Assembly (NCBI GenBank): GCA_964385255.1
Contig: CAYLOH010000001.1
Coordinates: 58,792-122,791, forward strand
DNA: 64,000 bases
Direction of reading: 5' to 3'
From: an uncultured Rubrivirga sp.
Lineage (GTDB): Bacteria > Actinomycetota > Actinomycetes > S36-B12
Shown here: one piece after another, positions 10,281 to 64,000 of the stretch
Position numbering within the stretch: position 1 is the stretch's first letter
How the letters are laid out: every line of letters starts with the position of its first letter
Program-made: the position numbers and the translations under genes
Notes under the pieces: model-generated
What the model was told of the DNA's origin: nothing
Databases searched by the model: none
Seen by the model: only the letters and a program-made list of their open reading frames with translations

Positions 10281-10286
10281 TCACCG

Positions 10287-44983: not shown

Positions 44984-45355
44984 ATGGAGCACCGACCTGT
45001 CGAGTTGATCGGTGTGTACGCGGCGGATGGCGGCGTCATCGGTGAGTTGCGCTACATCGTTGGCAAAGTTCGCGGTACGACCCATTGCGCCTTATGCGAC
45101 ATCACCCATGGGTTCGCGCGGCGCAAGTCCAGTTGGGACCGCGCCTGCGGAGACTTCGACATCCCCATCAGGTTGGTTCATTTGAACGAGCGCAGTTCCG
45201 CGGAGACGGCGGCGTGCACCCTGGGAACACCGACCATCCTCGCCCGATGGCCCGATGGCGGGCTCACCGCGATCCTGGGACCGGACGATCTCGAACTGAA
45301 CGGCTCGGTCTCCACGTTCTTCGATCGACTGTCGACGGCTGTGTCCAAGCCATGA
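44984..45355 (+). CDS. Hypothetical CxxC protein
   Basis: 123 aa counted from ATG 44984. Has THCALCDITH. ATGA overlap with the TspO gene. Family not recognised. Confidence 0.55.
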   Translation: MEHRPVELIGVYAADGGVIGELRYIVGKVRGTTHCALCDITHGFARRKSSWDRACGDFDIPIRLVHLNERSSAETAACTLGTPTILARWPDGGLTAILGPDDLELNGSVSTFFDRLSTAVSKP

Positions 45356-45834
45356 CGAGTGTGGACACGTGGCGCATCGGAGCGGTGGCCCTGGTCATCG
45401 CCGCGGTCATCGCCTACGCGGTTCTCTCGGGAGTCTGGGTCGGCACGGATTCCTCGTGGTACCGATCCCTGCAACAACCCTCCTGGCAACCACCGCCGTG
45501 GGTGTTCGGAGTCATCTGGCCGTACAACTTCCTCGCACTGGCGACCGTCTCGTCCGTCATCGCCTGGCAGGCGCCGGCGCAGCGCGTGATCGTGCTGATC
45601 ATCTTCCTGTTGGCCAGCATCGCCTGTGCCGTCGCATGGGCGTATCTGTTCTACGTTCCCCACGATCTCGTCTTCGCGGCGATCACCCTGTCTGCTGCCG
45701 CGGTGCTCACCGTGCCCATCGTGGTGATTGGCTTCCTCACCGTTGCCCTGTGGGGGTTAGCGCTCGTGCCCTACGTGGTGTGGCTGGCCCTCGCGGCCTC
45801 ACTGTCGTGGGGGTACGTCCGCTTGCACGGCTGA
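45352..45834 (+). CDS. tspO: TspO/MBR tryptophan-rich sensory protein
   Basis: Starts at ATG 45352 and has 5 TM helices. Contains WYRSLQQPSWQPPPWVFGVIWPYNF. Confidence 0.85.
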   Translation: MTSVDTWRIGAVALVIAAVIAYAVLSGVWVGTDSSWYRSLQQPSWQPPPWVFGVIWPYNFLALATVSSVIAWQAPAQRVIVLIIFLLASIACAVAWAYLFYVPHDLVFAAITLSAAAVLTVPIVVIGFLTVALWGLALVPYVVWLALAASLSWGYVRLHG

Positions 45835-45835
45835 A

Positions 45836-46132
45836 TCAGGATCCCAACTGATCCAGATAGTCGGTCAACGTCGCCTCGTCCCACTGCTCTTCCAAGGCCG
45901 CCGCGCGCTGGGCTGCGGCGGTCGCGGCGTCATCGGGGACCGATTCCCAGTCGGAGCGGACCCAGCCAGCGAGATAGGCGTCGGCATCGGTGTCGCCCAG
46001 CCGCATTGCAGCCTCATCGATCGCCTCTTGGAAGCGTTGCGCGAGGGGGACTTTGACCACTTGGTCACCTTCCCGGGCAGCGACCAGGGACGGAATATCC
46101 CGCCAATAGGTGACCTGAACGTCCGCCATCAA
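45836..46132 (-). CDS. Small conserved protein of unknown function (recalled as the so-called 'virulence factor' Pfam family)
   Basis: 98 aa beginning VQVTYWRDIPSLV. Its start overlaps the fdsD stop. It is the last gene of the minus-strand C1 gene train. Confidence 0.5.
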   Translation of the reverse strand: MMADVQVTYWRDIPSLVAAREGDQVVKVPLAQRFQEAIDEAAMRLGDTDADAYLAGWVRSDWESVPDDAATAAAQRAAALEEQWDEATLTDYLDQLGS

Positions 46133-46365
46133 TGCCTCCGCAGTGAGTCCAGCGCCGCATGGACCTCCGGCACGAGAGCCTCAGGGTAGTCCTGGGCGAT
46201 GGATTCGAGGTCGCTGCGCATGTGCGGCGTCCAGAAGCTCCGCATGTGCGCCGCAACCTGTTCGGGCACCGCATGCCGGTTGGGCACGTTGGCAGCGATC
46301 TGGTTGATCATCTTCACCAGGTGGGCCTGCTCGTAGTTCAATTCGGCACCCGATACCGCGGTCAC
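46129..46365 (-). CDS. fdsD: Formate dehydrogenase delta subunit (FdsD-like)
   Basis: 78 aa containing LVKMINQIAANV. Coupled by 4-nt overlaps on both sides. Confidence 0.7.
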   Translation of the reverse strand: MTAVSGAELNYEQAHLVKMINQIAANVPNRHAVPEQVAAHMRSFWTPHMRSDLESIAQDYPEALVPEVHAALDSLRRH

Positions 46366-49139: not shown

Positions 49140-50704
49140 CCGTGCACCTCCTGAGCGGAACGTCCGTCGCTGGACCGGAAATCGTCGGGAAAGTTATCCA
49201 GGGCGCTGAGCACGGGCATGGGCGTCAGCCCACCCATGGCACACAGCGAACCGTCGGTCATCACCTCGCACAAGTCGCGCAGCAGCATCTCATTGGATTC
49301 AGGATCCACCCCACGTCGGATCAGGTCAATGACTTCGGCGCCTCGAACCGAGCCGATGCGACACGGAGTGCACTTGCCGCAGGACTCCTCGGCGCAGAAT
49401 TCCATGGCGAAATGGGCTTGTTCGGCCATGTCGACCGTCTCGTCGAACACGACGAGACCACCGTGACCGAGCATGCCGCCGGCCTCGGCCAAGGACTCGT
49501 AGGCCATTGGCACCTCGAGCCGGTCCGCTGGTAGGTAAGCGCCGAGTGGGCCGCCGATCTGCACCGCCTTGACCGGTCGTTCGGATCGAGTGCCACCTCC
49601 GAATCCATAGACGAGTTCGCTCGCCGTCACACCGAATGCCACCTCGACGATGCCACCGCGCGCGATGTTCCCCGCCAATTGGAAGACCTGGGTTCCCTGA
49701 GAGCGTCCGATACCGAGGGCTGCGTAGTCCTGCGCACCTCGCGCCAGGATCGATGGAACACTCGCGATGGTCAAGACATTGTTCACAACCGTCGGTGTAC
49801 CGAAGAGGCCTTCGACGGCCGGTATCGGCGGCTTGGCGCGAACCATTCCGCGTCTGCCTTCGATGCTCTCCAACATCGCGGTTTCCTCGCCGCACACATA
49901 CGAACCCGCGCCGACTCGCACCTCGACGTCGAAGGGCACGTTCGAATCCAGAATGGATTCACCGATCCAACCCTGCTGGTAGGCGATCGCGATGGCCTTC
50001 TCGACGGTGGCGATGGCATCGGGGTACTCCGAGCGGATGTAAATGATGCCCCTGTCCGCTCCGACGGCGTACGCGGCGATCGCCATTCCCTCGAGCAGCG
50101 TGAAGGGATCGCCTTCCATCAGCATCCGATCCGCGAACGTTCCGCTGTCACCCTCGTCGGCGTTTACGCACACGTACTTGTGCGCCGGAGCCGACGGGTG
50201 GTCACCTCGGTGGCGACGCGCGGGCGTCTGAGCGACGGTTCGCCACTTGATGCCCGCAGGAAAACCAGCGCCTCCACGTCCGCGCAACCCGGACTCGATC
50301 ACCTCGTCGACCACGGCTTCCGGCTTCACCTTCACAGCCGCACGCAGACCCTCGATGCCGCCGTGCGTTCGATAAGCATCGGGGTCGAGCGGATCGATCA
50401 CGCCGACGCGGGAGAAGAGCCACCGATCTTGACGCGCGAAGAAGTCGATCTGCTCGACCGGCCCGAGGAAAGAAGGCGATGCCTCGTCGAGCACGGCATT
50501 CGTTACGTCGGCTGCGGCCACGTTCCCCCAGCCGACTCGCGCACCCGTCCGCTCGTCGATGCGTTCGACGAGCGGTTCGAGCCACAGCATGCCGCGACTG
50601 CCCGTTCGCACGATTGACTCCCCGCGCTGGATGAGCGCGTCGGCGACCTCGTCGGCACCCACCGAGCGCGCAGCGGAATCTCCTGGAACGAACCACACGC
50701 TCAC
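49136..50704 (-). CDS. fdsB: Formate dehydrogenase beta subunit (NuoF-like, FMN/NAD-binding)
   Basis: Has GLRGRGGAGFPAGIKW and ESCGKCTPCR. Confidence 0.88.
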   Translation of the reverse strand: MSVWFVPGDSAARSVGADEVADALIQRGESIVRTGSRGMLWLEPLVERIDERTGARVGWGNVAAADVTNAVLDEASPSFLGPVEQIDFFARQDRWLFSRVGVIDPLDPDAYRTHGGIEGLRAAVKVKPEAVVDEVIESGLRGRGGAGFPAGIKWRTVAQTPARRHRGDHPSAPAHKYVCVNADEGDSGTFADRMLMEGDPFTLLEGMAIAAYAVGADRGIIYIRSEYPDAIATVEKAIAIAYQQGWIGESILDSNVPFDVEVRVGAGSYVCGEETAMLESIEGRRGMVRAKPPIPAVEGLFGTPTVVNNVLTIASVPSILARGAQDYAALGIGRSQGTQVFQLAGNIARGGIVEVAFGVTASELVYGFGGGTRSERPVKAVQIGGPLGAYLPADRLEVPMAYESLAEAGGMLGHGGLVVFDETVDMAEQAHFAMEFCAEESCGKCTPCRIGSVRGAEVIDLIRRGVDPESNEMLLRDLCEVMTDGSLCAMGGLTPMPVLSALDNFPDDFRSSDGRSAQEVHG

Positions 50705-51186
50705 GAGCCACCCCCAGGAGCCATCGTCCGGACGCGACGCTCGATCGACTCCACGCTGGCTCGGCCGAGCAGTTCCCCGCCAATGGAAGCCGCCGGCCCC
50801 AGGGCGCAGTTGCCCAAGCAGAAGACGGGTTCGTCGACGCCCGTCAGTGCAGCGAGATCGGGGTCCGCTTCACATGCTCGGCGCCACTGACGCTCGAGCT
50901 CGCGGGCTCCGACGGCCTGGCACGCCTCGGCCGCGCACAGTCGGACCGGCACGGCAGCCGGTGGAGTGGTTCGAAGATCGGAGTAGAACGTCAGCACGCC
51001 GTGAACGTCCGCGCGCGAAACGTTGCAGCTCTCGGCGACGATCCCGATGGCCTCGGCGGGCACGTATCCGAAGCGCTCCTGGATGCCCTGAAGGCACCGA
51101 AGGACGGGCCCGGGTTCATCACAGATCCCCGAGACGACATCCCGGGCTGCTTCTTCAGACCACGAGTCGAAGTGAGTTCCGGTCAT
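50701..51186 (-). CDS. fdsG: Formate dehydrogenase gamma subunit (NuoE-like 2Fe-2S)
   Basis: Start ATG 51186 shares one nt with the fdhD stop (TGATG). Shows NuoE-type cysteines (CAAEACQAVG, CLGNCALGP). Confidence 0.8.
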   Translation of the reverse strand: MTGTHFDSWSEEAARDVVSGICDEPGPVLRCLQGIQERFGYVPAEAIGIVAESCNVSRADVHGVLTFYSDLRTTPPAAVPVRLCAAEACQAVGARELERQWRRACEADPDLAALTGVDEPVFCLGNCALGPAASIGGELLGRASVESIERRVRTMAPGGGS

Positions 51187-52037
51187 CACGCTCGCACCCA
51201 CTCACCGCCGGAGTAGACGTTCATCCGGTCTTCTCGAGCGAAGCCGATGAGAAGGAGGTCGTACCGGCGGGCTACTTCCACCGCCAAGGTCGTTGGACCG
51301 GACACCGCGACGATCGAACCGATGCAAGCGCTCAAAGCCTTGGCGACGATCTCGTAGGAGACGCGACCGCTGACCACCAACACGTGATTGGTGAGAGGGA
51401 GCAGACCGTCCATCAGAGCACGGCCGATCACCTTGTCCACTGCGTTGTGCCGACCGACGTCCTCGCGCACGAAAAGCACCTCGGAGTCCGGGCCTACGAG
51501 TGCGGCAGCGTGCAGTGCACCCGTGAGGTCGAACATCTTCTGACGAGACCGCATCTGCTCTATCAGGTCCAATGCCTGCTGTGGCTCGAGCCGCCACCCC
51601 GGCGTATGGAGCTCCGCGTACGGATCCGGGACGGCGTCGATGACGTCGGCGCTGCATACGCCGCATGAACTGGACGTCACATAAGCACGTGGACGTGGAG
51701 GGACTATGCCCGGAGCTATCCGCACGCGGACCGTGTCGACCTCATCGGCCTCGGATCCATTCGAGGATTCCGCACCCGAGCTCGAGGACGCGGCGAGTGC
51801 CTTCATCTCCACGATGTCGTCGGCGTGACGAAGGCCGGCCTCGCTCACCAACCAACCCGCGGCAAGATCCAGATCGTGACCGGGCGTCCTCATCGTGGTC
51901 GCGACAACCTCACCCTGGACCACGAGCGTCAAGGGTGACTCGACCACTATTCGATCGATGCGGTCGATGCGCTTGGAGCCGCGGCGCGTGACATCCTCGA
52001 GCCGAATGGTCGGCCGTGGACTCGTGGTGTGGCCCAC
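51186..52037 (-). CDS. fdhD: Formate dehydrogenase accessory sulfurtransferase FdhD
   Basis: Has TMRTPGHDLDLAAGWL, SSSCGVCS and GRHNAVDK. Confidence 0.88.
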   Translation of the reverse strand: MGHTTSPRPTIRLEDVTRRGSKRIDRIDRIVVESPLTLVVQGEVVATTMRTPGHDLDLAAGWLVSEAGLRHADDIVEMKALAASSSSGAESSNGSEADEVDTVRVRIAPGIVPPRPRAYVTSSSCGVCSADVIDAVPDPYAELHTPGWRLEPQQALDLIEQMRSRQKMFDLTGALHAAALVGPDSEVLFVREDVGRHNAVDKVIGRALMDGLLPLTNHVLVVSGRVSYEIVAKALSACIGSIVAVSGPTTLAVEVARRYDLLLIGFAREDRMNVYSGGEWVRA

Positions 52038-52039
52038 GG

Positions 52040-53725
52040 CTAGAACAACCCCACTACCTGACCGTCGAGGATGTCGATGCGTTCGCTCGACGGCACCTTC
52101 GGCAAACCGGGCATCGTCATGATGTCCCCGCAGACAGCGACGATGAACCCGGCGCCGGCCGAGAGCCGAACCTCACGGATATTCATGGAGTGGCCAGACG
52201 GAGCGCCACGCAAGGAAGGGTCGGTGGAGAAGGAGTACTGCGTCTTCGCGATGCACACGGGCAGGTGGCCGTACCCCTCCTCGGCCAACTCACGCATGCG
52301 AGATCGGACTTTGGAATCGGCGGTGACCTCCGACGCCCCGTAGATCTTCGTCGCGATGGCCTCCACCTTCTCCCATAACGTCGCGTTGTCGGGATAGACG
52401 AAAGATCCGTGACCGGCATCAACCGGACGCTCATCCTCGTCGCAGATGCCTGCCACGATGCGCGCCAACTCTGCCGCGCCCGCCCCACCATCAGCCCAGT
52501 GACTCGCGAGCACGATCGGCACACCGAGAGATTCCACGTGGGATCGCAGAAGTTCGATTTCCGCCGGTGTGTCGGTGACGAATTGATTGATCGAGACCAC
52601 AGGTGGGACGCCATAGTGATCACGCACATTGGCAATGTGCCTTTCCAGATTCACCATTCCGGCCTTCAGCGCATCCAGGTCTTCGTTAGTCAAGTGCTTG
52701 GCGTCGGCCCCCCCGTGATACTTCAATGCCCGGATGGTCGCGACGATCACTGCTGCGGAGGGGTGGAGCCCCGCACTTCGACACGTGATGTCGATGAACT
52801 TTTCCGCACCGAGGTCGGCTCCGAACCCGGCCTCCGTCACGACGTAGTCCGCCAGCCGCAGCGCGCCGGTTGTCGCGATGACACTGTTGCACCCGTGTGC
52901 GATGTTCGCGAAAGGTCCACCGTGGACGAAGGCAGGCGTCCCGTCGAGGGTTTGCACCAGGTTCGGTGACAGTGCGTCCTTGAGCAGGACCGTCATGGCG
53001 CCCTCGGCGCTTAGATCGCTCGCTCGGATGGGGTGCTTGTCTCGCGTGTATCCGACGACGATTCGCCCTATGCGCTCCTTGAGATCCGCGAGATCGGTGG
53101 CCAGGCAGAAGATCGCCATGATCTCCGATGCGACGACGATGTCGAAACCGTCCTGACGTGGGAAGCCGTTTCCAGGACCACCGAGCGCAACGGTGATGTC
53201 TCGGAGAGCGCGATCGTTCATGTCCACGACACGCTTCCACGTCACGCGTCGGACATCGATTCCCAGTGAATTGCCGTGGTGGATGTGATTGTCGATCAGC
53301 GCTGCCAGGAGGTTGTTCGCGAGAGCTATCGCGTTGAAGTCCCCCGTGAAGTGCAGGTTGATGTCCTCCATCGGCACCACCTGGGCTCGACCGCCACCAG
53401 CGGCGCCTCCCTTCATGCCGAAGACCGGCCCAAGCGAGGGTTCCCTCAGGCAGATCATCGCGTTCTTGCCGATATGCCGCAGGCCGTCACCCAGTCCGAC
53501 GGTCGTGGTGGTCTTGCCTTCTCCGGGTGGAGTCGGACTGATGGCGGTGACCAGCACCATGCGTGCATGTGATCGAACGGGCTGTTGCAGCAACCAGTCA
53601 AGGCGGACTTTGGCCTTCGTTCGACCGTACGGTTCCAACGCGTCTTCGGGGATGCCGATCAAGGCGGCGATCTCAGGTATCGGCGTCAGCGTCGCCGCCT
53701 GGGCGATCTCGATGTCGGTAGGCAT
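52040..53725 (-). CDS. fhs: Formate--tetrahydrofolate ligase
   Basis: 561 aa. Has [15 protein letters not shown] and matches the FTHFS family along its full length. Confidence 0.95.
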
Positions 53726-53737
53726 AGGTATTCCTCG

Positions 53738-54700
53738 TCACGCGCCCTGTGCGGCGCGTGCCTTCTCGATCAAGATGGGCAGCAGGGAATGCAGGTTGTC
53801 CACCACCGCGTAGTCCGCGTGGGCCATGATCGGCGCCTGCGCGTCGGTATTGATGGCGATCAAGGTCTTAGCGGACTTGCACCCCGCTATGTGCTGGGTC
53901 GCCCCGCTGATGCCGAACGCGAGATACAACTCGGGTGCCACCTTCGTGCCCGTTTGCCCGACCTGCTCCGCATGTGGACGCCAGCCAGCCGCGGTCACGA
54001 CCCGCGAGCACCCCACCGCACCGCCGAGGATGTCGGCGAGCTCTTCGAGCATCGCGAATGCCTCAGGACCGTCCATACCGCGACCACCCGAGACGACGAC
54101 CTTCGCTTCGGCCAATCCGACGCCGGTCGCTAGGGCTCCCGTTCGATCCTCGATCCGAACCACCAGATCCGCATCGGACAGAGGTACGTCGAACATCTGC
54201 GTTGTGGCCGATCCCGGGTTCTCCTGGGCGGCTACGGAATGCGCCTGCACCGAGGCCAACAGCGGACTTCCCGTCACCTTGCTGTTCTCCAATAGGTTGC
54301 CGCCCCAGCGCGCCCGGGTGACTTCGGCGGTCTCCGGCGAGGTCAGGGTGATCCCGCTGCACTCGGCAACGAATGCCACATCTCGGACGGCGGCGACGTG
54401 GGCGAGCACTTCGTTGCCACGTGGCGTACTGGCTGCGAGAACAACTCGGGGCGACGTTTGCTCCATGACCGAGAGCACCGCGCGCGCATTTGCCAGCGGG
54501 GTGTAGTCCGCGAGTCGATCATCGACTCCGTGATGCACGGTACGCACGCCGTACTTGGCAAGTTCGTCGGCGCATTTCTCCGCATTAGCGCCGACAACCA
54601 CGGCCTGGACGTCGTCGTCGATGGAACGCGCCATAGTCGCTACTTGACCGGCGAGAGGGTCGATCTCTCCCCGATCGTGATCGACATACATCAAGATCAT
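53738..54700 (-). CDS. etfA: Electron transfer flavoprotein alpha subunit
   Basis: Starts at ATG 54700 (MILMYVDHD), with an ATGA overlap on the etfB stop. Has the C-terminal FAD motif LYLAFGISGATQHIAG. The tracked 631-aa ORF is a frame artefact upstream of 54700. Confidence 0.9.
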   Translation of the reverse strand: MILMYVDHDRGEIDPLAGQVATMARSIDDDVQAVVVGANAEKCADELAKYGVRTVHHGVDDRLADYTPLANARAVLSVMEQTSPRVVLAASTPRGNEVLAHVAAVRDVAFVAECSGITLTSPETAEVTRARWGGNLLENSKVTGSPLLASVQAHSVAAQENPGSATTQMFDVPLSDADLVVRIEDRTGALATGVGLAEAKVVVSGGRGMDGPEAFAMLEELADILGGAVGCSRVVTAAGWRPHAEQVGQTGTKVAPELYLAFGISGATQHIAGCKSAKTLIAINTDAQAPIMAHADYAVVDNLHSLLPILIEKARAAQGA

Positions 54701-55455
54701 GACAACACTCCGATCTGCTTCATCACATCGACGAGGGCTTCGGCCGCCTGCTCGCCAGCGCCGAGGTTTTGAGCACCCTTGGATTCGCGGACCGGTGCCG
54801 TCAGGTTCAGCAGTTCGATGCGCGGTGCATCGAGATTCGCCTGCACTTCGTCGATGGGCTTCTTGCGGGCCTTGATGCGTCCGGGCACCGACGGGTAGCG
54901 AGGAATGTTCAATCCATCCTTCACGGTCACGACTGCCGGCAAAGGAACCCGATACACCTCGCGCATGCTTCCCACGGCCCGCTCGCACGTGGCGACGCCG
55001 TCGGTGATGCGCATGCCCTTGACCGCCGTGACGACGGGCCGCCCGAGCCGGTGCGCCAATCGCACCCCGGTCTGGGAATTCGCGTTGTCCGCGCTCTCCG
55101 ATCCCAGCAGGATCAGATCGAAGGGGGTGCCGTCGGCTTCGATCGCGTCGCCGAGCGCCTTGGCTGCGGCCTGAGGATCCACGTCGGTCGAATCGGAACG
55201 GATCCAGATCGCCCGATCGGCGCCGATGGCGAACTGCTCGCGGATCTGCTCCTCGACTCCCTCCGGTCCCAAGGACACCAGCGTGACCGTTCCCCCGAAC
55301 TCCTCCTTCAGTTGCACGGCGGCTTCGACGGCGCATTCCTCGTGCGGACTCAAGGTGAATCCCAACTTGTCGGTGTCGATCGCCATAGCGTCGTCGGTCA
55401 GCATGATGGCGCTGCCGAGTAGCGGGTACCTCTTGATGCAGACGCAGATCTCCAT
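54697..55455 (-). CDS. etfB: Electron transfer flavoprotein beta subunit
   Basis: 252 aa beginning MEICVCIKRYP. The start shares one nt with the stop of the upstream dehydrogenase gene (TGATG). Confidence 0.9.
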   Translation of the reverse strand: MEICVCIKRYPLLGSAIMLTDDAMAIDTDKLGFTLSPHEECAVEAAVQLKEEFGGTVTLVSLGPEGVEEQIREQFAIGADRAIWIRSDSTDVDPQAAAKALGDAIEADGTPFDLILLGSESADNANSQTGVRLAHRLGRPVVTAVKGMRITDGVATCERAVGSMREVYRVPLPAVVTVKDGLNIPRYPSVPGRIKARKKPIDEVQANLDAPRIELLNLTAPVRESKGAQNLGAGEQAAEALVDVMKQIGVLS

Positions 55456-57983
55456 CAGCCGGTGATCCGTTCGTTAGCAGGGTCGAACAACGGGGTTGCG
55501 CCCACTCGTTCGACGACGACGGGGTAGCGCTCGCCGAGGTACTCCACCAGCAGGTCCGTGCCTTCGACCGCATGCTCCGGCGGCAGGTAGGCCATGAGTA
55601 GGTGCTTGCCGAGCGAGGGAGCCGATCCCGCACTGGTCACGAACGACCGTCGTCCGTGCTTGTCCGTGATCGGCGCTCCGTCGAGGGTCAGTACGGGCTC
55701 CATGCCGAGCATGTAGCGCTTCTCCCCCGTGGAACTCGTGTGGTCCGTGACCGACAACGTGCACATCACGGCAATCGGATCCTCGTCCCGCTGGGCGAGG
55801 TAGGCCTCCTTGCCGATGAACTCCTGATCCTTCACCTTCTTCAGGGCCATGCCGGCTTCGACGAGGTTGTACTCGCTGTCCAGCTCGGCACCGTAGGCGC
55901 GGTAGCCCTTCTCCAGCCGCCCTGTCGTGCCGTAGACGCCGATGCCTACCGGGATCAGCCCGTGTTGCTGGCCTGCATGCCACACCATGTCCCACAACTT
56001 GGCGCCTTGTTCCATGGGCAGGTACAACTCCCAGCCGAGGTCGCCCACGTAGGAGATGCGCGACGCGAGCACCCGTAGCGGACCCATCTCGATCACCCGA
56101 CAGGTTCCGAAGGGGTGACCCTCGTTGGACATGTCGGCCTTCGTGAGGGATTGGATGATCGCGCGCGCGTTCGGACCCCACACGCCGAGGGTCGTCATGG
56201 CGGACGTCAGATCCTGGATCTGTGCGCTGCCATCCGCCGGCAACTGATCGGCGAACCACTTCTTGTCCGCCATGCCGTGAGCGCCACCGGTCACCACACG
56301 GAAGTGATGGGTTCCCAAACGCATGATGGTGAGGTCTGACTTGAAGCCGCCTCGCGGAGTGAGTACCGGCGTGTAGATGACCTTGCCCACCGCGACGTCC
56401 ATTTGACGAACCGCAGTCCGTTGTACGACATCCAGTGCCCCTGGGCCGACGATGTCGAAGATCGCGAACGCGGTGAGATCGATCATGCCGGCCGTCTCCC
56501 GCATCTGGAGGTGCTCGGCATTGATGATCGGCGACCACCAGCGCGAATCCCATTCGGCCGTCCGCGGCATCACCGCGTCGCCGAACTTCTCCACCAAGGC
56601 GGCGTTGCTCTCGTACCAGAACGGGCGTTCCCAGCCGACGGTCTCGTAGAAGACCGCACCGAGAGCCTTCTCCTGTTCGTAGTAGGGCGAGAGCCGAACG
56701 TTGCGATTACTGCCCCATTGCTCCCCCGGATGGATGATCCCGTAGGTCTTGATGAAGCCCTCGGAGGTACGCGCGACGATGTGCTCGCGAGTCTTGTGAT
56801 GTTCGTAGAAGCGGGAAACGTCGGCGCCGTGCAGGTCGATCTCCGGCTCGCCCAGCACGATCCACTCGGCGATCGATTTGCCCACTCCCGGACCTTCCTT
56901 GATCCAGACGGCTGCGGCGGACCACAGTCCCTTGACTTCGGGCGTCTCGCCGAGGATCGGTGCACCATCGGGTGTCAAGGAGAGCAAGCCGTTGCAGGCG
57001 TACTTCTCCCCAACGCTTTCGTCGCCCACGATGTCGGGCATCAATTCCAGCGCGTGCTCGTCTTGGAGATCGAAGTCCTCCTGCGTGAACGGCATCTCCG
57101 TCGGCGAGAGTGCTGCTTGCTCGTTGGAGGGAATCTCATCGGCTTCGTACAGGATCGCCCGGTGGGCGTACGACCCGATTTCCAGTCCGGTGCCGTGCTG
57201 CCGCTCGTACATGAACGTGTCCATGTCGCGGATGATCGGCCACTCGATGTCGCCTTTGGTATCGGCGAAGAAGGGCACCGGGCCGATGTCCTTCATCTGG
57301 TGCACGGCCGGCGTCAGCGGGATGGCAGCCCCCGCCATGGCGGCTATTCGCGGACTCCACACCCCGCAGGCGACCACGACGCACTCCGTGGCGATGGTGC
57401 CGCGGTCGGTGACGACCGCCGAGACTTTCCCATCGGTCACTTCGATGTCCAAGACTTCGGTATTGGACAAGCTCGTCAGCGCACCCAGTTCTTGGGCACG
57501 CTCGCGCATGATCGTGCCGGCGCGTAACGAATCCACCACACCTACGGACGGGGTCCAGAATCCACCGAGGATCACAGACTCGTCGATGTAGGGAACCTTC
57601 TCCTTCACCTGTTCGGGTGTGAGTAACTCGGTGTCATTGATGTCGAAGGACTTCGCCGACTGCATACGACGGGTCAGTTCCTGCATGCGGTCCTCTGTGC
57701 GAGCGACTTCGATGCCGCCACACTCCGTGAAGACACCCATCTCCTTGTACTGCTTCATGCTTTCGAGCGTGAGTTGGGTGATCTCCTTGCTGTGATCGGT
57801 GGGGAAGATGAAGTTGGACGCATGGCCGGTGGAGCCACCGGGATTGGGCAATGGACCCTTGTCCACTTGCACGATGTCCCTCCAACCCAACCGTGCTAGG
57901 TGGTACACGATCGAGTTGCCGACGATGCCCGCGCCGATGACGACACACTGTGCGCTGGTGGGCGCCTTCGGTTCTTCTGCCAT
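55455..57983 (-). CDS. Dimethylglycine/sarcosine dehydrogenase-family flavoenzyme (DAO domain plus GcvT folate-binding domain)
   Basis: Has the N-terminal motif CVVIGAGIVGNS and a C-terminal aminomethyltransferase-like half, about 840 aa in all. Start taken as ATG 57983 (AAGGA upstream); ATG 58016 is possible. Confidence 0.85.
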   Translation of the reverse strand: MAEEPKAPTSAQCVVIGAGIVGNSIVYHLARLGWRDIVQVDKGPLPNPGGSTGHASNFIFPTDHSKEITQLTLESMKQYKEMGVFTECGGIEVARTEDRMQELTRRMQSAKSFDINDTELLTPEQVKEKVPYIDESVILGGFWTPSVGVVDSLRAGTIMRERAQELGALTSLSNTEVLDIEVTDGKVSAVVTDRGTIATECVVVACGVWSPRIAAMAGAAIPLTPAVHQMKDIGPVPFFADTKGDIEWPIIRDMDTFMYERQHGTGLEIGSYAHRAILYEADEIPSNEQAALSPTEMPFTQEDFDLQDEHALELMPDIVGDESVGEKYACNGLLSLTPDGAPILGETPEVKGLWSAAAVWIKEGPGVGKSIAEWIVLGEPEIDLHGADVSRFYEHHKTREHIVARTSEGFIKTYGIIHPGEQWGSNRNVRLSPYYEQEKALGAVFYETVGWERPFWYESNAALVEKFGDAVMPRTAEWDSRWWSPIINAEHLQMRETAGMIDLTAFAIFDIVGPGALDVVQRTAVRQMDVAVGKVIYTPVLTPRGGFKSDLTIMRLGTHHFRVVTGGAHGMADKKWFADQLPADGSAQIQDLTSAMTTLGVWGPNARAIIQSLTKADMSNEGHPFGTCRVIEMGPLRVLASRISYVGDLGWELYLPMEQGAKLWDMVWHAGQQHGLIPVGIGVYGTTGRLEKGYRAYGAELDSEYNLVEAGMALKKVKDQEFIGKEAYLAQRDEDPIAVMCTLSVTDHTSSTGEKRYMLGMEPVLTLDGAPITDKHGRRSFVTSAGSAPSLGKHLLMAYLPPEHAVEGTDLLVEYLGERYPVVVERVGATPLFDPANERITG

Positions 57984-58031
57984 GTCTTTCCGATCCTTTT
58001 CTCGTAGGACTTGCATTGCTCGACTTGCTAC

Positions 58032-58673
58032 TTACAGGGCGCGACGCATCTCCGCCTCGAACCCCTCGATGTGCTTGCTCATGACAACCGCGGCTCGCTC
58101 GGCGTCACCATCACGGATGGCTTCCAATATCTCGCGGTGCTCGAGGACCGCTTGCTGCAGGTGCGTGACCTTCGTCAGACCGAGAAACCAGATGCGAAGT
58201 GCGTGCGTGTAGTAGTTGTCCAGATCATGGGCGAGATAGGCGTTGTGACTCGCCTGATACACGCAATGGTGGATTCGCTCGTCGAGGTCCATCAGAACCG
58301 TCCGGTGCTCGTCGACACCACTTCGCTCGAAGATCTCCAGGTCCGCCAACAGGCCGTCGATGACAGCGAGGTCATCCGCGTCGCGGCGACTAGCGGCCAA
58401 GGAGGCAGCGAACGGTTCGAGTTGTTCACGCACCTCGCTGATCGCGCGCAGATCTCTCGGGTCAACCCCCGCCACGAACATGCCACGGCGCGGGTACACC
58501 TCGATGAGGTGCTCGGACGCCAGTGCGCGCAGGGCTTCGCGCACTGGCGTCCGGCCCAGTCCGAGTTGTTCACACAACCCGGATTCACTGATCACCGCTC
58601 CGGGCTCGAGCTCGGCGGTGCAGATCATGCGGCGAAGACGCCCATAGGCCTGGTCGGCTAGGGACTGCGTCAT
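58032..58673 (-). CDS. GntR-family (FadR-like) transcriptional regulator
   Basis: Starts at ATG 58673. Has the wHTH segment ISESGLCEQLGLGRTPVREALRAL and an all-helical C-terminal domain. Confidence 0.85.
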   Translation of the reverse strand: MTQSLADQAYGRLRRMICTAELEPGAVISESGLCEQLGLGRTPVREALRALASEHLIEVYPRRGMFVAGVDPRDLRAISEVREQLEPFAASLAASRRDADDLAVIDGLLADLEIFERSGVDEHRTVLMDLDERIHHCVYQASHNAYLAHDLDNYYTHALRIWFLGLTKVTHLQQAVLEHREILEAIRDGDAERAAVVMSKHIEGFEAEMRRAL

Positions 58674-58686
58674 CGCGGGAGCCACG

Positions 58687-58721
58687 TGTACAGATATATC
58701 AGTTCGCAGTGTTCTTGTACA
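58687..58721 (-). promoter_or_regulatory. Candidate gntR promoter with two TGTACA palindromes
   Basis: Minus-strand read: TGTACA (58721-58716), 17 nt, TATATC (58698-58693), TGTACA (58692-58687), 13 nt, then ATG 58673. This is consistent with a -35/-10 pair plus an operator overlapping +1. TGTACA also fits the GT..AC core of GntR-type boxes. Confidence 0.45.
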
Positions 58722-58761
58722 CCAGATTCCGGAAAGAGCCCCGCCTCCCGCCGTTTCGGCC

Positions 58762-59370
58762 TTAGTCGTGGGCCAGGAGGGCCTCGACCTCGTCCGCCAG
58801 ACCACCCCGCCCCACCGGGACGACGGTCAAGGGCAGTCCCAGCGCATCGGCCGCTTCGCGCGCCGCCGCCGCAAGATCGGGGTCATCCGGTCGGGTCGCC
58901 AGCCACACCACATTCCGATAGTTCCCGAAGTAGTCCTCCCGCAAGTGCGGGTAGCGATCCAGGCCCAGTTCCACGATGACCGATCGGTGGAATCCACGAA
59001 CAAGGAAATCGGTCAGCAGATAGGTGCCCGGCTCCTTCGCCATGAGGTCGCGCACCCGTTCCGGGCCGGCATACACGTCGTAGCAATGCTGCCCACCGAG
59101 TCGAGTGACGCCGTGGCGCTCGCACACATCATCGAGCGACCCGTAGGTGCCACAGTCGGCATAGGCGATACCGACTCGCTCGTAGTCGTTCTTGATACGA
59201 AGCAACAACTCCTCCACGGCCGAGGAAATCCGCTCCGGATGGTTGTGTAGCAGTGGCGGCAAGGGGTAGACGGTGACCCCCCAACCATGTTGCCGGTCGA
59301 GTTCGATCAGGTCGGAGGCCAGAGCCCCGCACGCGATGAGTGCGACATTGGCCCGCGCTGGATCGTTCAC
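58762..59370 (-). CDS. DUF1638 domain protein
   Basis: 202 aa containing VALIACGALASDL...YADCGTYG. Overlaps the upstream activase gene by 4 nt. As I recall, this family is usually found in corrinoid methyltransferase loci. Confidence 0.6.
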   Translation of the reverse strand: MNDPARANVALIACGALASDLIELDRQHGWGVTVYPLPPLLHNHPERISSAVEELLLRIKNDYERVGIAYADCGTYGSLDDVCERHGVTRLGGQHCYDVYAGPERVRDLMAKEPGTYLLTDFLVRGFHRSVIVELGLDRYPHLREDYFGNYRNVVWLATRPDDPDLAAAAREAADALGLPLTVVPVGRGGLADEVEALLAHD

Positions 59371-61295
59371 GAGACTGGGAAGGCCAGTTCCTCGACGAAT
59401 CGATCGTTGAAGTCCTCACGGTCGGACAATTCGACGTAGGTGATCACGTTGAGCAGTGAGTGGGCGCCGTTGCGCTCAGAGCCCGACAGCAGGACCATCT
59501 TCGCGCCCTCGCCGGCCACGTTCCCCGCACTGACCACGCGAGAGGCCGCGATCTTCGGAACCAAGCCGATTCGGATCGCGTTCTTCGGCGAGAGGTAACT
59601 GCCGAACGAGCCGGCCAGCAGTACCTGCTGAACGTCCTGCTCCTTGATTCCAAACTCCTCCAACAAGATCGCCCATCCGGTCGAGATGGCCGCCTTCGCG
59701 AACTGAAGTTCCCGCACATCGCGCTGCGAGAGATACACACCGTTCCCGGCGACCGGATCGCCGCTCAGAACGAAGATACGTTCCTGTCCACGCATCACCA
59801 GCCGATCGGCAACGTGCGGAGCCACTTTCGTCGCTTGCTCATCGGAGACGAATCGTCCCGACTCATCCAAAATGCCCACGCGTACCAATTCGGCGACCGC
59901 GTCGACGAGACCGGACCCGCAGATGCCCACCGCGTCGGCGCCGTCGATGCATTCGACGTGAACCCCGGATTCGTCGATGCGGACGACTTCGATGGCACCG
60001 GGGGCCGCTCGCATTCCGCACGCGATGGAGGCCGCTTCGAACGCCGGGCCCGCGGGTGCTGCGGTAGCCAGCAGTCGCTCACCGTTGCCCAGGATCATTT
60101 CGCAGTTGGTGCCCACGTCGATGAACAGCCGAACACGCTGATCCCGATCCATGCCGCACGCCAGGCCACCGGACACGATGTCGCCACCAACGTACGCACC
60201 CAAAGCTGGGAACAAGCACGCGCGAGCGCGCGGATTGACGTTGATGCCGAGTTCATCCGCCCTAGCGTCCGGGTAGTCCTCGGCCGCCAAGATAAAGGGA
60301 GCGACGCCCAGTGGCTCCGGGTCTATCCCCAGCGCGATCTGGACCATGGTGGCATTGCCCGCCACCGCGACCTGGTAGACCTCGGAGCGCTCTACGCCGG
60401 CTTCATCGCAGACCTCACCGGTCAATTCATCCAGCGTCTGATGCGCGAGCGATTGAAGTGTGTTCAACGCATCCGGGTCGAGCATGGTGGCGCTGATCCG
60501 ACTGATCACGTCAGCACCGAACCTTTGCTGCTTATTGAGCATCGACGAGACGGCCAGCGGCATGCCATTGGTCAGATCCAGCAACGTGGCCACCACCGTG
60601 GTGGTGCCGAGGTCGTAGGCGATTCCGAAGACCCGGCCGGATGTGTCGCCGGGCTCCACCGCGACGAGAACGTCATCGACCACGACGGCCGTCACCTGGA
60701 AGGAGGCAGAACGCAGTACTCGCGGCAGGGTGCGCAACACCATCGGATCGGCACTCGACGCGATATCCGTGATCGCATCCATGACACGGCGCAGGTCAGG
60801 GCGCTGATCGGTCAGCGTTGGCTCAGCCAGTTCCACGAAGCGCTTGAGGACTGTGGGTCGATGGATGACCTGTCGACCGACGCCCACGGTCGAGGCCTTG
60901 GGCCGGGTGGTGAGCGGAGGGACATGTACCCGAAGGTCGCCACTCGCCACCGCTTGGCAAGCCAGCCGCCACCCGGCCTGCAGCTCCTCTTCGGTGAAGG
61001 CGCGTGCGTCGACGCTGCCTACGGGTACGTCTCCGCGAAGGATCTGCACGCGACACTTTCGGCACGTTCCATGGCCCCCGCACGTCGAATCCACGGCGAT
61101 CGCGTTCCAACTCGCGACATCGAAGACGTTCACACCGACGGGAGCGCGGACGTGCTTGCCGGATGGCTCGAAGTCAATCGCCACGCGCGCGAGGTCCTCG
61201 TGACCACCGCCTTCGATATGGGGAATCTCGGGTCCGGGTTGGTCGACGAGGACGGTGGAGTCCTGGTTCCCCAAATCGGGGTGCTGATCGGCCAT
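59367..61295 (-). CDS. Corrinoid reductive activase (RACo-type: N-terminal 2Fe-2S ferredoxin plus ASKHA ATPase domain)
   Basis: Starts at ATG 61295. Has a plant-type ferredoxin motif (CGGHGTCRKCRV) and a long ASKHA-like C-terminal region (DLGTTTV, DVGTNCE). Confidence 0.8.
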   Translation of the reverse strand: MADQHPDLGNQDSTVLVDQPGPEIPHIEGGGHEDLARVAIDFEPSGKHVRAPVGVNVFDVASWNAIAVDSTCGGHGTCRKCRVQILRGDVPVGSVDARAFTEEELQAGWRLACQAVASGDLRVHVPPLTTRPKASTVGVGRQVIHRPTVLKRFVELAEPTLTDQRPDLRRVMDAITDIASSADPMVLRTLPRVLRSASFQVTAVVVDDVLVAVEPGDTSGRVFGIAYDLGTTTVVATLLDLTNGMPLAVSSMLNKQQRFGADVISRISATMLDPDALNTLQSLAHQTLDELTGEVCDEAGVERSEVYQVAVAGNATMVQIALGIDPEPLGVAPFILAAEDYPDARADELGINVNPRARACLFPALGAYVGGDIVSGGLACGMDRDQRVRLFIDVGTNCEMILGNGERLLATAAPAGPAFEAASIACGMRAAPGAIEVVRIDESGVHVECIDGADAVGICGSGLVDAVAELVRVGILDESGRFVSDEQATKVAPHVADRLVMRGQERIFVLSGDPVAGNGVYLSQRDVRELQFAKAAISTGWAILLEEFGIKEQDVQQVLLAGSFGSYLSPKNAIRIGLVPKIAASRVVSAGNVAGEGAKMVLLSGSERNGAHSLLNVITYVELSDREDFNDRFVEELAFPVS

Positions 61296-61309
61296 TGGTC
61301 GATGATCCC

Positions 61310-62167
61310 CTAGCCAGCGGCCTCGCGCGCGCGATGGGCCGCGATCCAATTCATGCCCCATTCGTCATTGCCGAGCATCAAGTCGGCTGCCTTGACGGCG
61401 GTGACGATCTGCGGGGTGCGCGCATCCATGATCGCGCTGGTCAATCCAGCGCCCATGGCCATCGGCAAGAACACCGAGTTCAGCGTGTGGCGATCCGGCA
61501 TCCCGAAGGACACATTGGAAGCGCCGAGCGTCATATTGACCCCGATATTGGTGGCGATCAGTTCGATCGTCTCCAACGTGCGAACGACCATCTGGGAGTC
61601 CGCGCCGATAGGCATCGCGAGGGGATCGATGACGATGTCCTCGATGGGGATTCCGTACTTCGAGGTTGCCGTGTCGACGAGGTATTGCGTCAACTCAAAA
61701 CGCCTCTGCGGGTCCTCGGGGATCTCCTTATCGTCGTTCGGCAGGGCGATAACCGCAGCTTGGTACTTCTTGACCAAGGGAAGGATCAGTTCCATGCGTT
61801 CGTCTTCGGCCGTGACCGAGTTGACGAGCGCCTTGCCCTCGTAGGCAGCTAGGCCGGCTTCGAGTGCCTCGACCACGGACGAGTCGATGCACAGCGGGAT
61901 ATCCGTGATTCCCTGGATCAGCCGAACTGCCTGGGCGAGTAGTGCGGCTTCGTCCACCAGCGGGGCACCCATGTTGACGTCGAGCATCATCGCGCCACCT
62001 GCAATCTGGTCGGCGACGTCCTTCTCGACGGCCGATAGATCCCCGGCGCGAAGTTGCTCCTGGAAGGTCTTGCGGCCGGTCGGATTGATTCGCTCCCCGA
62101 TGATGCAGAAGGGCTGATCCGGGCCGATGGTCACGGACTGGTTAGCCGAACTGACGATGGTGTGCAT
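61310..62167 (-). CDS. Methyl-THF:corrinoid methyltransferase (pterin-binding, MtgA/AcsE/MetH-module-like)
   Basis: 285 aa. Has IIGERINPTGRK, LDVNMG and GASNVSFG, the pterin-binding TIM-barrel signatures. Confidence 0.8.
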   Translation of the reverse strand: MHTIVSSANQSVTIGPDQPFCIIGERINPTGRKTFQEQLRAGDLSAVEKDVADQIAGGAMMLDVNMGAPLVDEAALLAQAVRLIQGITDIPLCIDSSVVEALEAGLAAYEGKALVNSVTAEDERMELILPLVKKYQAAVIALPNDDKEIPEDPQRRFELTQYLVDTATSKYGIPIEDIVIDPLAMPIGADSQMVVRTLETIELIATNIGVNMTLGASNVSFGMPDRHTLNSVFLPMAMGAGLTSAIMDARTPQIVTAVKAADLMLGNDEWGMNWIAAHRAREAAG

Positions 62168-62216
62168 GATGCTCCTGCCGTTGATGTGTGCTTCGACTGA
62201 TACGTGATTCAGGTTC

Positions 62217-63143
62217 CTAGGCGCTGCGCGCCGTTGTGCCAGATGCTGATGGACCGATGGCGACGTCCGTCACCAGGCGCTCCACGGTTCCGTCGTGGCG
62301 GAAATCCGTGACGTGGACACCGGCCACCCCCGGCAGCGCGAGTGCATGCTCCACCTGTTCGCGAACAACACGGTACGACTCCTCAGCCGGGTCAGCTGCC
62401 TGGGCGACGCGTTCGATGATCGATGCAGGTACGTGGATGCCCGGCACGTTCGACTCCATGAAGCGCAATGCACCCGCGGACTTGGTCAAGATCACGGTGG
62501 GCATCAATGCAGCCTCGTCAGCAACCCCGTTCTCCCGACACCCGTTCACGAAGGCTTCGAGCAATTCGGGTTGGTAGCCGATCTGCAGTTGCACGAAACG
62601 CGCACCCGCGTCCACCTTCATGCGCGCTCGGCGGATCCGCACATCGGCTGGCGGTGCGTAGGGGTTCTCCACTGCACCGATCAGCAGCTCAGTCGGATGC
62701 TTGAGGCGGCGACCCGAAAGGTAGTTACCGTCGGAAAGCCCCGACATGATCGAGATCAATTGCGGTCCGTCGATGTCGAAGACCCGGCGCGCCTCCGGTT
62801 CGTCACCGGCGGTCACGTCGTCGCCGGTGAGGGCGCAGAAAGTGGTGACCCCGTGCATCGAAGCGCCAACGACGTCGGCCTGGACGGCGATCCGATTCTT
62901 GTCACGACATACGACCTGCATGATGGGTTCAACGCCGAGTTGCTTCACCGCGATCGCCATGGCGACGTTGCTGGCATGTGCGTGGGCAGCAGGGTTATCG
63001 GTGATGTTCACCGCGTCCACGAACCCCCGGTACTGCATGAGGGTCTGGTCGACCGTCGACAGATCACCACCGTCCATGGCGGGGAACTCAGCCGTGACGA
63101 TGGGTCGCTCACGGGTGCGGACGAGATCACGAAAGGAGGACAT
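62217..63143 (-). CDS. metF: Methylenetetrahydrofolate reductase family protein (MetF-like)
   Basis: Starts at ATG 63143, sharing one nt with the upstream stop (TGATG). Shows MTHFR-fold features (VNITDNP, QLQIGY). Confidence 0.75.
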   Translation of the reverse strand: MSSFRDLVRTRERPIVTAEFPAMDGGDLSTVDQTLMQYRGFVDAVNITDNPAAHAHASNVAMAIAVKQLGVEPIMQVVCRDKNRIAVQADVVGASMHGVTTFCALTGDDVTAGDEPEARRVFDIDGPQLISIMSGLSDGNYLSGRRLKHPTELLIGAVENPYAPPADVRIRRARMKVDAGARFVQLQIGYQPELLEAFVNGCRENGVADEAALMPTVILTKSAGALRFMESNVPGIHVPASIIERVAQAADPAEESYRVVREQVEHALALPGVAGVHVTDFRHDGTVERLVTDVAIGPSASGTTARSA

Positions 63144-63517
63144 CAGTGGGTGCCCTGCCAGCCGGCCGGCGTTTGGCGGTCCTTGCCATTCATCAGGTTG
63201 ACCCACGACGAGTCGCCCTTGAGTTGATTGTTCACCGGTGGGCGCAGGTGCCCCACTTCCTCCCGCCAGGATTTCGGTAGCAGTGGCATGTTCTCCGCGC
63301 GATCATTCGCTTTGACCCACACGCATCGCATCTCCGGCTTCACCTCGCAATTGCCGTCTGTGCGAACTCCTCCGCATGGACCGTTTCGGAGGGTCTTGGG
63401 GCACGTCATCGGGCACGTCATGCCAGTGGAGTGCAAGACGCACTGTCCGCACATTTGGCAATCCCAGATGGGACCTTTGACGGCGTGCTCGACGATGGGA
63501 AGCAAGGAACGCAGCAT
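63143..63517 (-). CDS. Cys-rich MTHFR C-terminal-domain protein (MetV-like small subunit)
   Basis: 124 aa containing WDCQMCGQCVLHSTGMTCPMTCPKTLRNGPCGG. Confidence 0.7.
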   Translation of the reverse strand: MLRSLLPIVEHAVKGPIWDCQMCGQCVLHSTGMTCPMTCPKTLRNGPCGGVRTDGNCEVKPEMRCVWVKANDRAENMPLLPKSWREEVGHLRPPVNNQLKGDSSWVNLMNGKDRQTPAGWQGTH

Positions 63518-63519
63518 GA

Positions 63520-64000
63520 TCAGCTACCGGTTCGCGCCGCGAGCAGTTCCTTGGCCCGCCGTACCGCGGTCGCTGCGTCTGCGGCATAACCATCGGCACC
63601 GCAGACATCCGCGTACTCCTGCGTGACGGGAGCACCGCCCACCATGATGACGATGTCGTCGCGCAGGCCAGCCTTCTCGATCGCGTTGATGTTGACCTTG
63701 AACATCGGCATCGTGGTCGTCAAGAAGGCGGACATTCCAACGATGTCTGGCTTGTGTTCCTGAATCGCCTCGATGAACTTCTCCGGTGGGGCCTGCACGC
63801 CGATGTCGATGACGTGGAAACCCGCTCCTTCGAGCATGATGTTGACGAGGTTCTTCCCGATGTCATGGACGTCACCCTTGACGGTGCCCATCAAGAACGT
63901 GCCGACCGTTTCGGCACCGGTCTGCGCCAGAAGCGGACGAAGAACGTCGAGCGCGCCGGACATCGCCTTGCCCGCGATCAACATCTCCGGCACGAAGAAG
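63520..64000 (-). CDS. B12-binding corrinoid protein (5' end cut by the window edge)
   Basis: Has the DxHxxG motif (GDVHDIGKN), S-x-L (MSAFLTTT) and GG (VMVGGAPV). The reading frame stays open to position 64000, so the N-terminal cap domain is outside the window. Confidence 0.85.
   Translation of the reverse strand, partial: FFVPEMLIAGKAMSGALDVLRPLLAQTGAETVGTFLMGTVKGDVHDIGKNLVNIMLEGAGFHVIDIGVQAPPEKFIEAIQEHKPDIVGMSAFLTTTMPMFKVNINAIEKAGLRDDIVIMVGGAPVTQEYADVCGADGYAADAATAVRRAKELLAARTGS

Follow-up and report, generated by a model that had tools for sequence, protein, structure and literature searches.

The 64,000-nucleotide (nt) stretch of contig CAYLOH010000001.1 analyzed here (hereafter the window) quite probably ends inside an island for corrinoid-dependent glycine betaine demethylation and one-carbon (C1) oxidation, which continues past position 64000 with a gene for an IclR-family regulator and, divergent to it, a gene for a methyltransferase of the MttB family. 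The original prediction, made from the sequence of the window, had described a corrinoid methyl-transfer module lacking only its substrate-specific methyltransferase (MT1) and had placed an MttB-superfamily MT1 within a few kb past the edge. The missing enzyme exists: a non-pyrrolysine MttB-family methyltransferase of 479 amino acids (aa), P0254, is encoded in the same strain about 1.1 kb beyond position 64000, and its neighbors point to choline and glycine betaine. The locus is an actinobacterial example of the MtgBC-type pathway already described in other bacteria, and no new kind of system.

Methyl-transfer module in the window

Pfam scans covered about 60 open reading frames (ORFs) spanning all 64 kb, and NCBIfam models with their cut-offs were applied to selected proteins. 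The genes of the module lie at the end of the window:

63520-64000, minus strand, cut by the window end: corrinoid (B12-binding) carrier, MtgC-like (Pfam B12-binding, E 5e-30)
63143-63517, minus strand: MetV-like small Cys-rich protein, 124 aa, DUF5981 or "MTHFR C-terminal" family (PF12225, E 1e-24, residues 10-78)
62217-63143, minus strand: methylenetetrahydrofolate reductase (MTHFR) MetF, 308 aa (Pfam MTHFR, PF02219, E 4e-22)
61310-62167, minus strand: pterin-binding methylcorrinoid:tetrahydrofolate methyltransferase (MT2; MtgA or MtgD in the literature), 285 aa (Pterin_bind, PF00809, E 8e-28)
59367-61295, minus strand: RACo/RamA-type ATP-dependent reductive activase with an N-terminal 2Fe-2S ferredoxin domain (Fer2, RACo_linker, Raco_middle and RACo_C_ter, E down to 2.5e-77)
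58762-59370, minus strand: DUF1638 protein, 202 aa (PF07796, E 5e-24)

All three parts named in the original prediction for minus-strand positions 59367-64000, i.e. the corrinoid carrier with its DxHxxG motif, the pterin methyltransferase and the RACo-type activase with its 2Fe-2S domain, were recovered by Pfam. The description of the module as complete apart from MT1 is right for these parts but omitted MetV and MetF, located between the genes for the corrinoid and pterin proteins, as well as DUF1638, which follows RACo. The corrinoid gene is cut at position 64000, as had been noted: some 157-160 C-terminal residues of 218 are inside the window, with the DxHxxG motif (DVHDIG, His-on) at 63856-63873 in the translation, and the remaining 61 codons, the first of the gene, were found beyond the edge on contig L082. 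The full 218-aa protein from L082 (window-equivalent 63520-64176) combines a PF02607 B12-binding_2 cap with a PF02310 Rossmann B12-binding domain, and the solved structures nearest to it are 1y80 and then the MttC chain of 7xcn.

MetV is called with 124 aa or 62 aa depending on the gene caller, and we favor the 124-aa version because the Pfam match covers residues 10-78; a sequence search found no relative of this protein in the PDB. The ATG of MetF shares 1 nt with the MetV stop codon. An identical 308-aa MetF is called on contigs L082 and L083, and its similarity to the Thermus MTHFR structures 3apt and 1v93 is distant (E ~1e-7). A DUF5981 gene directly before an MTHFR-domain gene, the arrangement found here, marks a reductase of the MetV/MetF type. 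MT2 scores 322 bits with NF005719 (methyl-tetrahydrofolate:corrinoid methyltransferase), above the cut-off of 259. For RACo, 61295 is the probable start (giving 642 aa, the length called on contigs of the same strain) and not 61361, where the longest ORF begins; with the NCBIfam model AcsV the protein reaches 437 bits, under the cut-off of 800. The DUF1638 gene overlaps the RACo stop codon by 4 nt. It is the conserved final gene of the module, and its position after RACo is syntenic in most related loci.

Methyltransferase beyond the window edge

The absence of an MT1-type enzyme from the window was borne out. A tblastn search of the 64 kb with an orthologous MttB gave no match at E ≤ 1e-3, and no MTTB, MtaB, MtmB, MtbB or URO-D domain appeared in the Pfam scans. 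A place after DUF1638, where MT1 is found in three related loci (L013, L102 and L104), was ruled out in the window, as a GntR-family regulator gene and the gene for a dimethylglycine dehydrogenase-type enzyme (DMGDH) directly follow DUF1638 there.

The same-strain extension was built from two Logan contigs of one sequencing run (SRR14454014), L082 and L191, found through exact-protein look-ups and homolog search. Exact look-ups with the MetV, MT2 and MetF proteins of the window returned only contigs of at most 5.9 kb. L082 differs from the window at 2 positions in 5,396 aligned nt (99.96% identical) and reaches 508 nt past the edge, completing the corrinoid gene and adding, on the same strand, the last 111 codons of an IclR-family gene (PF01614); the two genes overlap by 4 nt (ATGA). 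L191 holds the first 147 IclR codons, a 136-nt spacer, the divergent 479-aa PF06253 gene for P0254 and, after a further 9 nt, the beginning of a GMC oxidoreductase gene. In window-equivalent coordinates, the reconstructed features are:

64173-64982, minus strand, reconstructed: IclR regulator, 269 aa
64983-65118 (L191:442-577), reconstructed: divergent spacer between IclR and MttB, 136 nt
about 65119-66558 (L191:578-2017), plus strand, reconstructed: MttB-family MT1, P0254, 479 aa (PF06253, E 5.9e-189)
from 66568, plus strand, reconstructed: choline dehydrogenase

Since the IclR gene lies directly upstream of the corrinoid gene, the next gene is a regulator and not MT1. The operon does continue upstream on the minus strand, as expected, but only as far as IclR, while the MT1 gene is on the plus strand and divergent to the corrinoid operon. 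A gene on the other strand followed by unrelated functions had been named as speaking against the prediction; the gene found on that strand is the methyltransferase itself, and choline dehydrogenase follows it.

L191 and L082 do not overlap, and 11 IclR residues (33 nt) between them are not covered by DNA. The reconstruction could in principle be a stitching artefact, with L191 stemming from a co-occurring close relative and the strain's own genome differing beyond IclR, given that the samples contain two or more lineages whose DNA is about 9% divergent and whose corrinoid protein is the same. We consider this very improbable. A single 269-aa IclR record, P0224, matches both contigs without a difference, L191 through its residues 1-147 and L082 through its residues 159-269, whereas P0219, the IclR of the sister lineage, has 5 deviations among the last 111 residues. 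In NCBI records, P0224 and P0254 are each assigned to a contig of 170,918 nt, the length also given for the contig of the exact corrinoid, MT2, MetF and 642-aa RACo proteins of the window, evidently the contig from which the window stems; this agreement in length is indirect evidence. The sister lineage also has the same gene order.

Negatives of the word-indexed homolog search are unreliable for short queries: a search with the 111-aa IclR fragment gave a best identity of 69% and missed the 95-100% identical 269-aa proteins P0219 and P0224. Six Logan/ENA matches to the MttB ortholog of locus L002 (P0118, P0128, P0133, P0143, P0151 and P0164) were considered as the strain's own MttB and rejected, all being from other species; their loci have the same divergent MttB/IclR layout.

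Related loci

The sister lineage is represented by ENA contig L187 (46.6 kb). Its DNA has about 91% identity with the window, its corrinoid protein is the same residue for residue, and its IclR agrees with the fragment at 106 of 111 residues. IclR and the corrinoid gene are on one strand of L187, and divergent to them follow MttB, choline dehydrogenase, aldehyde dehydrogenase, an ABC ATPase, a permease and an OpuAC binding protein. The choline dehydrogenase scores 839 bits with the equivalog model TIGR01810 (cut-off 732), and the best match of the aldehyde dehydrogenase is a betaine-aldehyde dehydrogenase (BADH). The search for transporters proposed in the original prediction was thus successful in this relative, which has an OpuAC-type ABC transporter beyond MT1, and unsuccessful in the window. 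The two lineages, about 9% apart in DNA (L187, L188 and L189 versus the window and L082), co-occur in related lake-type samples (MUNK22-1, ERZ151858xx). An identical 218-aa corrinoid protein at this DNA divergence implies strong purifying selection on the protein.

The corrinoid protein also led to more distant orthologous loci in GTDB genomes and JGI metagenomes, with best corrinoid protein identities of 84% and 86%, respectively, and 32 loci had enough flanking sequence to be informative. The divergent MttB/IclR-corrinoid layout was found in 26 of these 32. MttB follows DUF1638 on the same strand in three (L013, L102, L104), a URO-D-family gene takes the place of MttB in the divergent slot of one (L105), and no MT1 was visible in two. 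All ten informative loci that carry a DMGDH gene also have an MttB gene. The order DUF1638, GntR, DMGDH, EtfB downstream in the window is that of L002, a divergent-type locus. The MetV/MetF pair is present only in some orthologous loci (L002, L013, L085, L087, L096, L100, L102, L103 and L105).

Some of these loci have features of their own. In L013, L102 and L104, at about 14-16.5 kb of each locus, MttB is followed by aldehyde dehydrogenase and choline dehydrogenase, and GntR-DMGDH-EtfBA lies upstream of IclR. L105 has a corrinoid protein 82% identical to that of the window and retains MetV/MetF; the URO-D-family gene is beside IclR, a MetE-like Meth_synt_2 gene is downstream, and DMGDH is absent nearby. 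The regions of these two genes are:

L105:7809-9125, minus strand: URO-D-family gene
L105:15082-16326, plus strand: MetE-like Meth_synt_2 gene

A 1,079-aa ORF upstream of IclR in L105 has no Pfam match and was dismissed as a shadow ORF over real minus-strand genes. On the 4.2-Mb contig L018 of a metagenome-assembled genome, MttB (7665-9099) and the corrinoid gene (9968-10619) each align as two pieces in different frames, which could be caused by assembly frameshift errors or reflect pseudogenes.

Proposed pathway

The C1 island occupies about 46.1-64 kb of the window, in the order corrinoid, MetV, MetF, MT2, RACo, DUF1638, GntR/FCD, DAO-GcvT, EtfB, EtfA, formate-tetrahydrofolate ligase, FdhD and FdsGBAD. 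Following DUF1638, its genes are:

58032-58805, minus strand: GntR/FCD-family transcriptional regulator (Pfam GntR, E 1e-17; FCD, E 1e-24)
55455-58016, minus strand: dimethylglycine/sarcosine dehydrogenase-type enzyme, FAD oxidase plus folate-binding GcvT domain, 853 aa (Pfam DAO, FAO_M, GCV_T, GCV_T_C)
54697-55455, minus strand: electron-transfer flavoprotein (ETF) subunit EtfB (Pfam ETF)
53738-54700, minus strand: ETF subunit EtfA (Pfam ETF, ETF_alpha)
52040-53725, minus strand: formate-tetrahydrofolate ligase, 561 aa (from reading the translation)
51186-52037, minus strand: FdhD (from the translation only)
50701-51201, minus strand: FdsG (Pfam 2Fe-2S_thioredx)
49136-50704, minus strand: FdsB (Pfam Complex1_51K, NADH_4Fe-4S)
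46362-49139, minus strand: FdsA (Pfam Molybdopterin, Molydop_binding, Fer2_4)
46129-46365, minus strand: FdsD (Pfam FdsD)

Residue 49 of the longest ORF is the first of the GntR domain, and the true start of this regulator is probably the ATG at 58673. The DAO-GcvT dehydrogenase reaches no NCBIfam equivalog cut-off. Orthologs of the formate-tetrahydrofolate ligase adjoin MttB in loci L085 and L087 (tblastn). The ligase and the NAD-linked formate dehydrogenase set (FdsGBAD with FdhD) directly follow the DMGDH and ETF genes (46129-53725, minus strand), which offers a route from tetrahydrofolate-bound C1 units to CO2.

While the gene content is observed, the chemistry proposed here draws on family knowledge and on a recent study of Ruegeria pomeroyi (Mausz et al., PNAS 2025, PMC12478193). 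Choline would be converted to glycine betaine by BetA and the aldehyde dehydrogenase. The MttB-family enzyme would then move one N-methyl group of glycine betaine to the Co(I) of the corrinoid protein, leaving dimethylglycine, and the pterin-binding MT2 would pass the methyl from the corrinoid to tetrahydrofolate. MetV/MetF could oxidize methyl-tetrahydrofolate to methylene-tetrahydrofolate, its place inside a methyl-oxidizing operon presumably indicating the oxidative direction, and formate-tetrahydrofolate ligase with the Fds formate dehydrogenase would carry the carbon to formate and on to CO2. Further methyl groups may be taken off dimethylglycine, and perhaps sarcosine, as methylene-tetrahydrofolate by the DAO-GcvT dehydrogenase with ETF. 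RACo, together with DUF1638, would re-reduce corrinoid that has become oxidized to Co(II). A gene for SURF1, a cytochrome oxidase assembly protein, at 11589-12365 indicates aerobic respiration, and the host is probably an aerobic freshwater actinobacterium.

The corrinoid protein and MT2 also match modules of MetH (E 1e-38 to 1e-44), and they could instead be mainly a split methionine synthase passing a methyl from methyl-tetrahydrofolate via the corrinoid to homocysteine, with MttB a secondary or unrelated neighbor; the MetE-like gene downstream in L105 would fit such a role. We find this improbable, since neither the window ORFs nor the genes tabulated for L187 and L191 showed a homocysteine-binding S-methyltransferase or Meth_synt domain, and the operon sits in a catabolic set (DMGDH, ETF, formate-tetrahydrofolate ligase, formate dehydrogenase, choline dehydrogenase) and accompanies MttB in most of the informative loci. 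The corrinoid protein and MT2 may have a dual role that includes methionine synthesis.

Substrate of the methyltransferase

P0254 is of the non-pyrrolysine type because its ORF is continuous over 479 codons without an in-frame stop or UAG, which settles the check for an in-frame TAG suggested in the original prediction. It scores 299.5 bits with TIGR02369 (pyrrolysine MttB), short of the cut-off of 525, and a pyrrolysine trimethylamine enzyme is excluded. The L002 ortholog, which is 77% identical to P0254, has its closest solved relatives in 4yyc (the MttB homolog of S. meliloti) and in 2qne and 9yce (MtgB of D. hafniense, 9yce being named "Glycine betaine methyltransferase"), at E 1e-116 to 1e-134, whereas the pyrrolysine MttB 7xcl gives only E 4e-39. 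P0254 itself is 46% identical to 4yyc. Homologs of MT1 number 7,771 proteins at E ≤ 1e-100; among the 120 listed nearly all are 479 aa long, and source annotations, where given, are trimethylamine methyltransferase, from Actinomycetes, Nanopelagicales and Nocardioides.

In MtgB, four substrate contacts have been assigned by mutagenesis and by a structure with bound substrate: Y97 and F356 hold the quaternary nitrogen by cation-pi interactions, and R312 and H348 hold the carboxylate (Picking et al., PMC13080624). The chain numbering of 9yce is offset by 2 from that paper, and after correction all four contact residues align. Three of the four are kept in P0254 (Y98, equivalent to MtgB Y97, R312 and H348) and in 120 of 120 close homologs aligned. 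The aromatic pair Y97/F356 is not conserved in MtcB, MtpB, MthB and MtyB, whose specific substrates include carnitine, proline betaine, gamma-butyrobetaine and choline (PMC13080624), and the retention of Y97 in P0254 argues for betaine. Glycine betaine is likely to be the substrate of P0254. The original prediction had named it as fitting the dimethylglycine dehydrogenase, and the three contacts, choline dehydrogenase, and DMGDH with ETF all support this choice.

Several observations weigh against glycine betaine demethylation as the function of this island. Over the full length, P0254 shares only 40% of its residues with the characterized MtgB, and other members of the MttB superfamily use other substrates, with proline betaine, carnitine, gamma-butyrobetaine and choline among the proven specificities (PMC13080624). 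At the position of MtgB F356, P0254 and all 120 close homologs have Gly, which leaves room for doubt. Four residues before Gly356, Trp352 is invariant in P0254 and the 120 homologs and is the same in 4yyc; residues 348-357 read H-x-A-G-W-L-E-G-G-L in the actinobacterial clade and 4yyc versus H-T-A-G-I-L-Q-Y-F-M in D. hafniense MtgB. That W352 stands in for F356 is only a guess. The corrinoid protein reaches neither its best NCBIfam model, MtgC_2 (NF047996; 198.9 bits, cut-off 370), nor MtgC (NF047995; 155.3 bits, cut-off 310). Pfam found no BCCT or OpuAC transporter among the window ORFs, and no FolD gene was seen in the window. The URO-D-family gene of L105 belongs here as well, as does the layout past the edge, pieced together from two short contigs with a 33-nt gap and bridged by a protein record and matching 170,918-nt records.

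The limited identity to MtgB, the replaced cation-pi residue and the range of proven specificities would also fit an enzyme with another methyl donor (proline betaine, carnitine, gamma-butyrobetaine, choline or trimethylamine), on which the island would then feed, and R312 and H348 are conserved in non-betaine members too (PMC13080624). We regard such a donor as unlikely. Besides the retained Y97, betaine is favored because the adjoining choline dehydrogenase, above its equivalog cut-off in the relative, and the relative's BADH-like aldehyde dehydrogenase would produce it, and because the DAO-GcvT enzyme, encoded in the window at a distance of 3 kb, would with ETF consume dimethylglycine.

The methyltransferase slot is not invariant and looks exchangeable, given the URO-D-family gene in L105. 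It is conceivable, though doubtful, that the IclR-corrinoid-(MetVF)-MT2-RACo-DUF1638 operon serves soil and freshwater Actinomycetota as a general chassis for methyl oxidation, in which the substrate-specific methyltransferase of the divergent slot can be exchanged, and that the actinobacterial MttB clade with Gly356 and Trp352 binds its quaternary amine unlike MtgB or prefers some substrate different from glycine betaine.

Comparison with known systems

MetV/MetF-type methylenetetrahydrofolate reductases are known from acetogens such as Acetobacterium and Moorella. The likeness lies in an MTHFR-domain MetF directly after a small Cys-rich DUF5981 gene; here, in contrast, the pair is found in an aerobic actinobacterium and within a methyl-oxidizing operon.

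The closest parallel in gene content comes from aerobic growth of Ruegeria pomeroyi DSS-3 on glycine betaine, which uses MtgB/C/D, RamA, DUF1638 and MetF2; mtgC and mtgD knock-outs did not grow on betaine, and co-located operons were noted in other bacteria (PMC12478193). The same study predicts a role in corrinoid reactivation for DUF1638, which is induced on N-osmolytes in Ruegeria, finds the MtgC of aerobes phylogenetically distinct from the anaerobe type, and attributes 5% of ocean mtgC reads to Actinomycetota. Our locus shares with Ruegeria a non-pyrrolysine PF06253 MT1, a small corrinoid protein, a pterin methyltransferase, RamA/RACo, DUF1638 and a dedicated methyl-tetrahydrofolate-oxidizing MetF, as well as the tie to genes for choline, dimethylglycine and tetrahydrofolate C1 oxidation in an aerobe. 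It differs in its actinobacterial host, in the arrangement of the genes as one tight operon led by IclR, and in the divergent MT1. MetF is partnered here by MetV, which is unmentioned in PMC12478193, where MetF2 is described, and MtgE (the homocysteine module) was not seen in the window, L187 or L191.

The MtgB/MtgC/MtgA system of D. hafniense Y51 has biochemically proven glycine betaine:corrinoid:tetrahydrofolate methyl transfer and structures 2qne and 9yce (PMC13080624). The three-component logic and protein families are the same here, and Y97, R312 and H348 are kept. D. hafniense is an anaerobe in which methyl-tetrahydrofolate feeds anaerobic metabolism, whereas the present host is aerobic; the F356 change to Gly with Trp at 352, and the scores of the corrinoid protein under the MtgC cut-offs, set the proteins apart further. 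The AGWLEGGL motif is shared with the S. meliloti homolog 4yyc. The pyrrolysine MttB/MttC of methanogens (7xcl, 7xcn; TIGR02369) has in common with our proteins the PF06253 family, a TIM-barrel MT1 and a homologous corrinoid partner, but differs by its in-frame UAG, absent here, and by the methyl acceptor, which is coenzyme M there and would be tetrahydrofolate here.

Our literature search on MttB, betaine and dimethylglycine in Actinobacteria found no dedicated study. Judged by more than 7,700 homologs at E ≤ 1e-100, B12-dependent betaine demethylation, recently established in marine Proteobacteria, appears to be widespread in Actinomycetota. In the actinobacterial loci the genes of this route are grouped in a single compact, regulated island that includes MetV/MetF and genes for formate oxidation. 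This bears on how osmolyte turnover and B12 demand are annotated in bacteria of soils and lakes.

Regulation

The IclR gene heads the corrinoid operon and faces the MT1 gene, which suggests that this single regulator controls both arms. IclR would be co-transcribed with the corrinoid gene, the 136-nt spacer would serve as a divergent promoter region, and the IclR and GntR regulators may each govern one half of the island. A perfect palindrome, TGGAAC-N4-GTTCCA, was detected in the IclR/MttB spacer of L191 and of 9 of 21 other loci examined, including L002, L003, L085, L087, L095, L096, L111 and L187. Across the 2.3 Mb of all loci retrieved, this site is found only about 30 times, and the window lacks it. 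The palindrome is a candidate IclR operator.

Island boundary

Below 46 kb the window contains housekeeping and sugar genes with no relation to the island, among them enolase, DivIC and Ppx. At the boundary, a small ORF of the PF13769 "Virulence_fact" family (45839-46132, minus strand) abuts FdsD, and beside it is a TspO/MBR family gene (45085-45831, plus strand).

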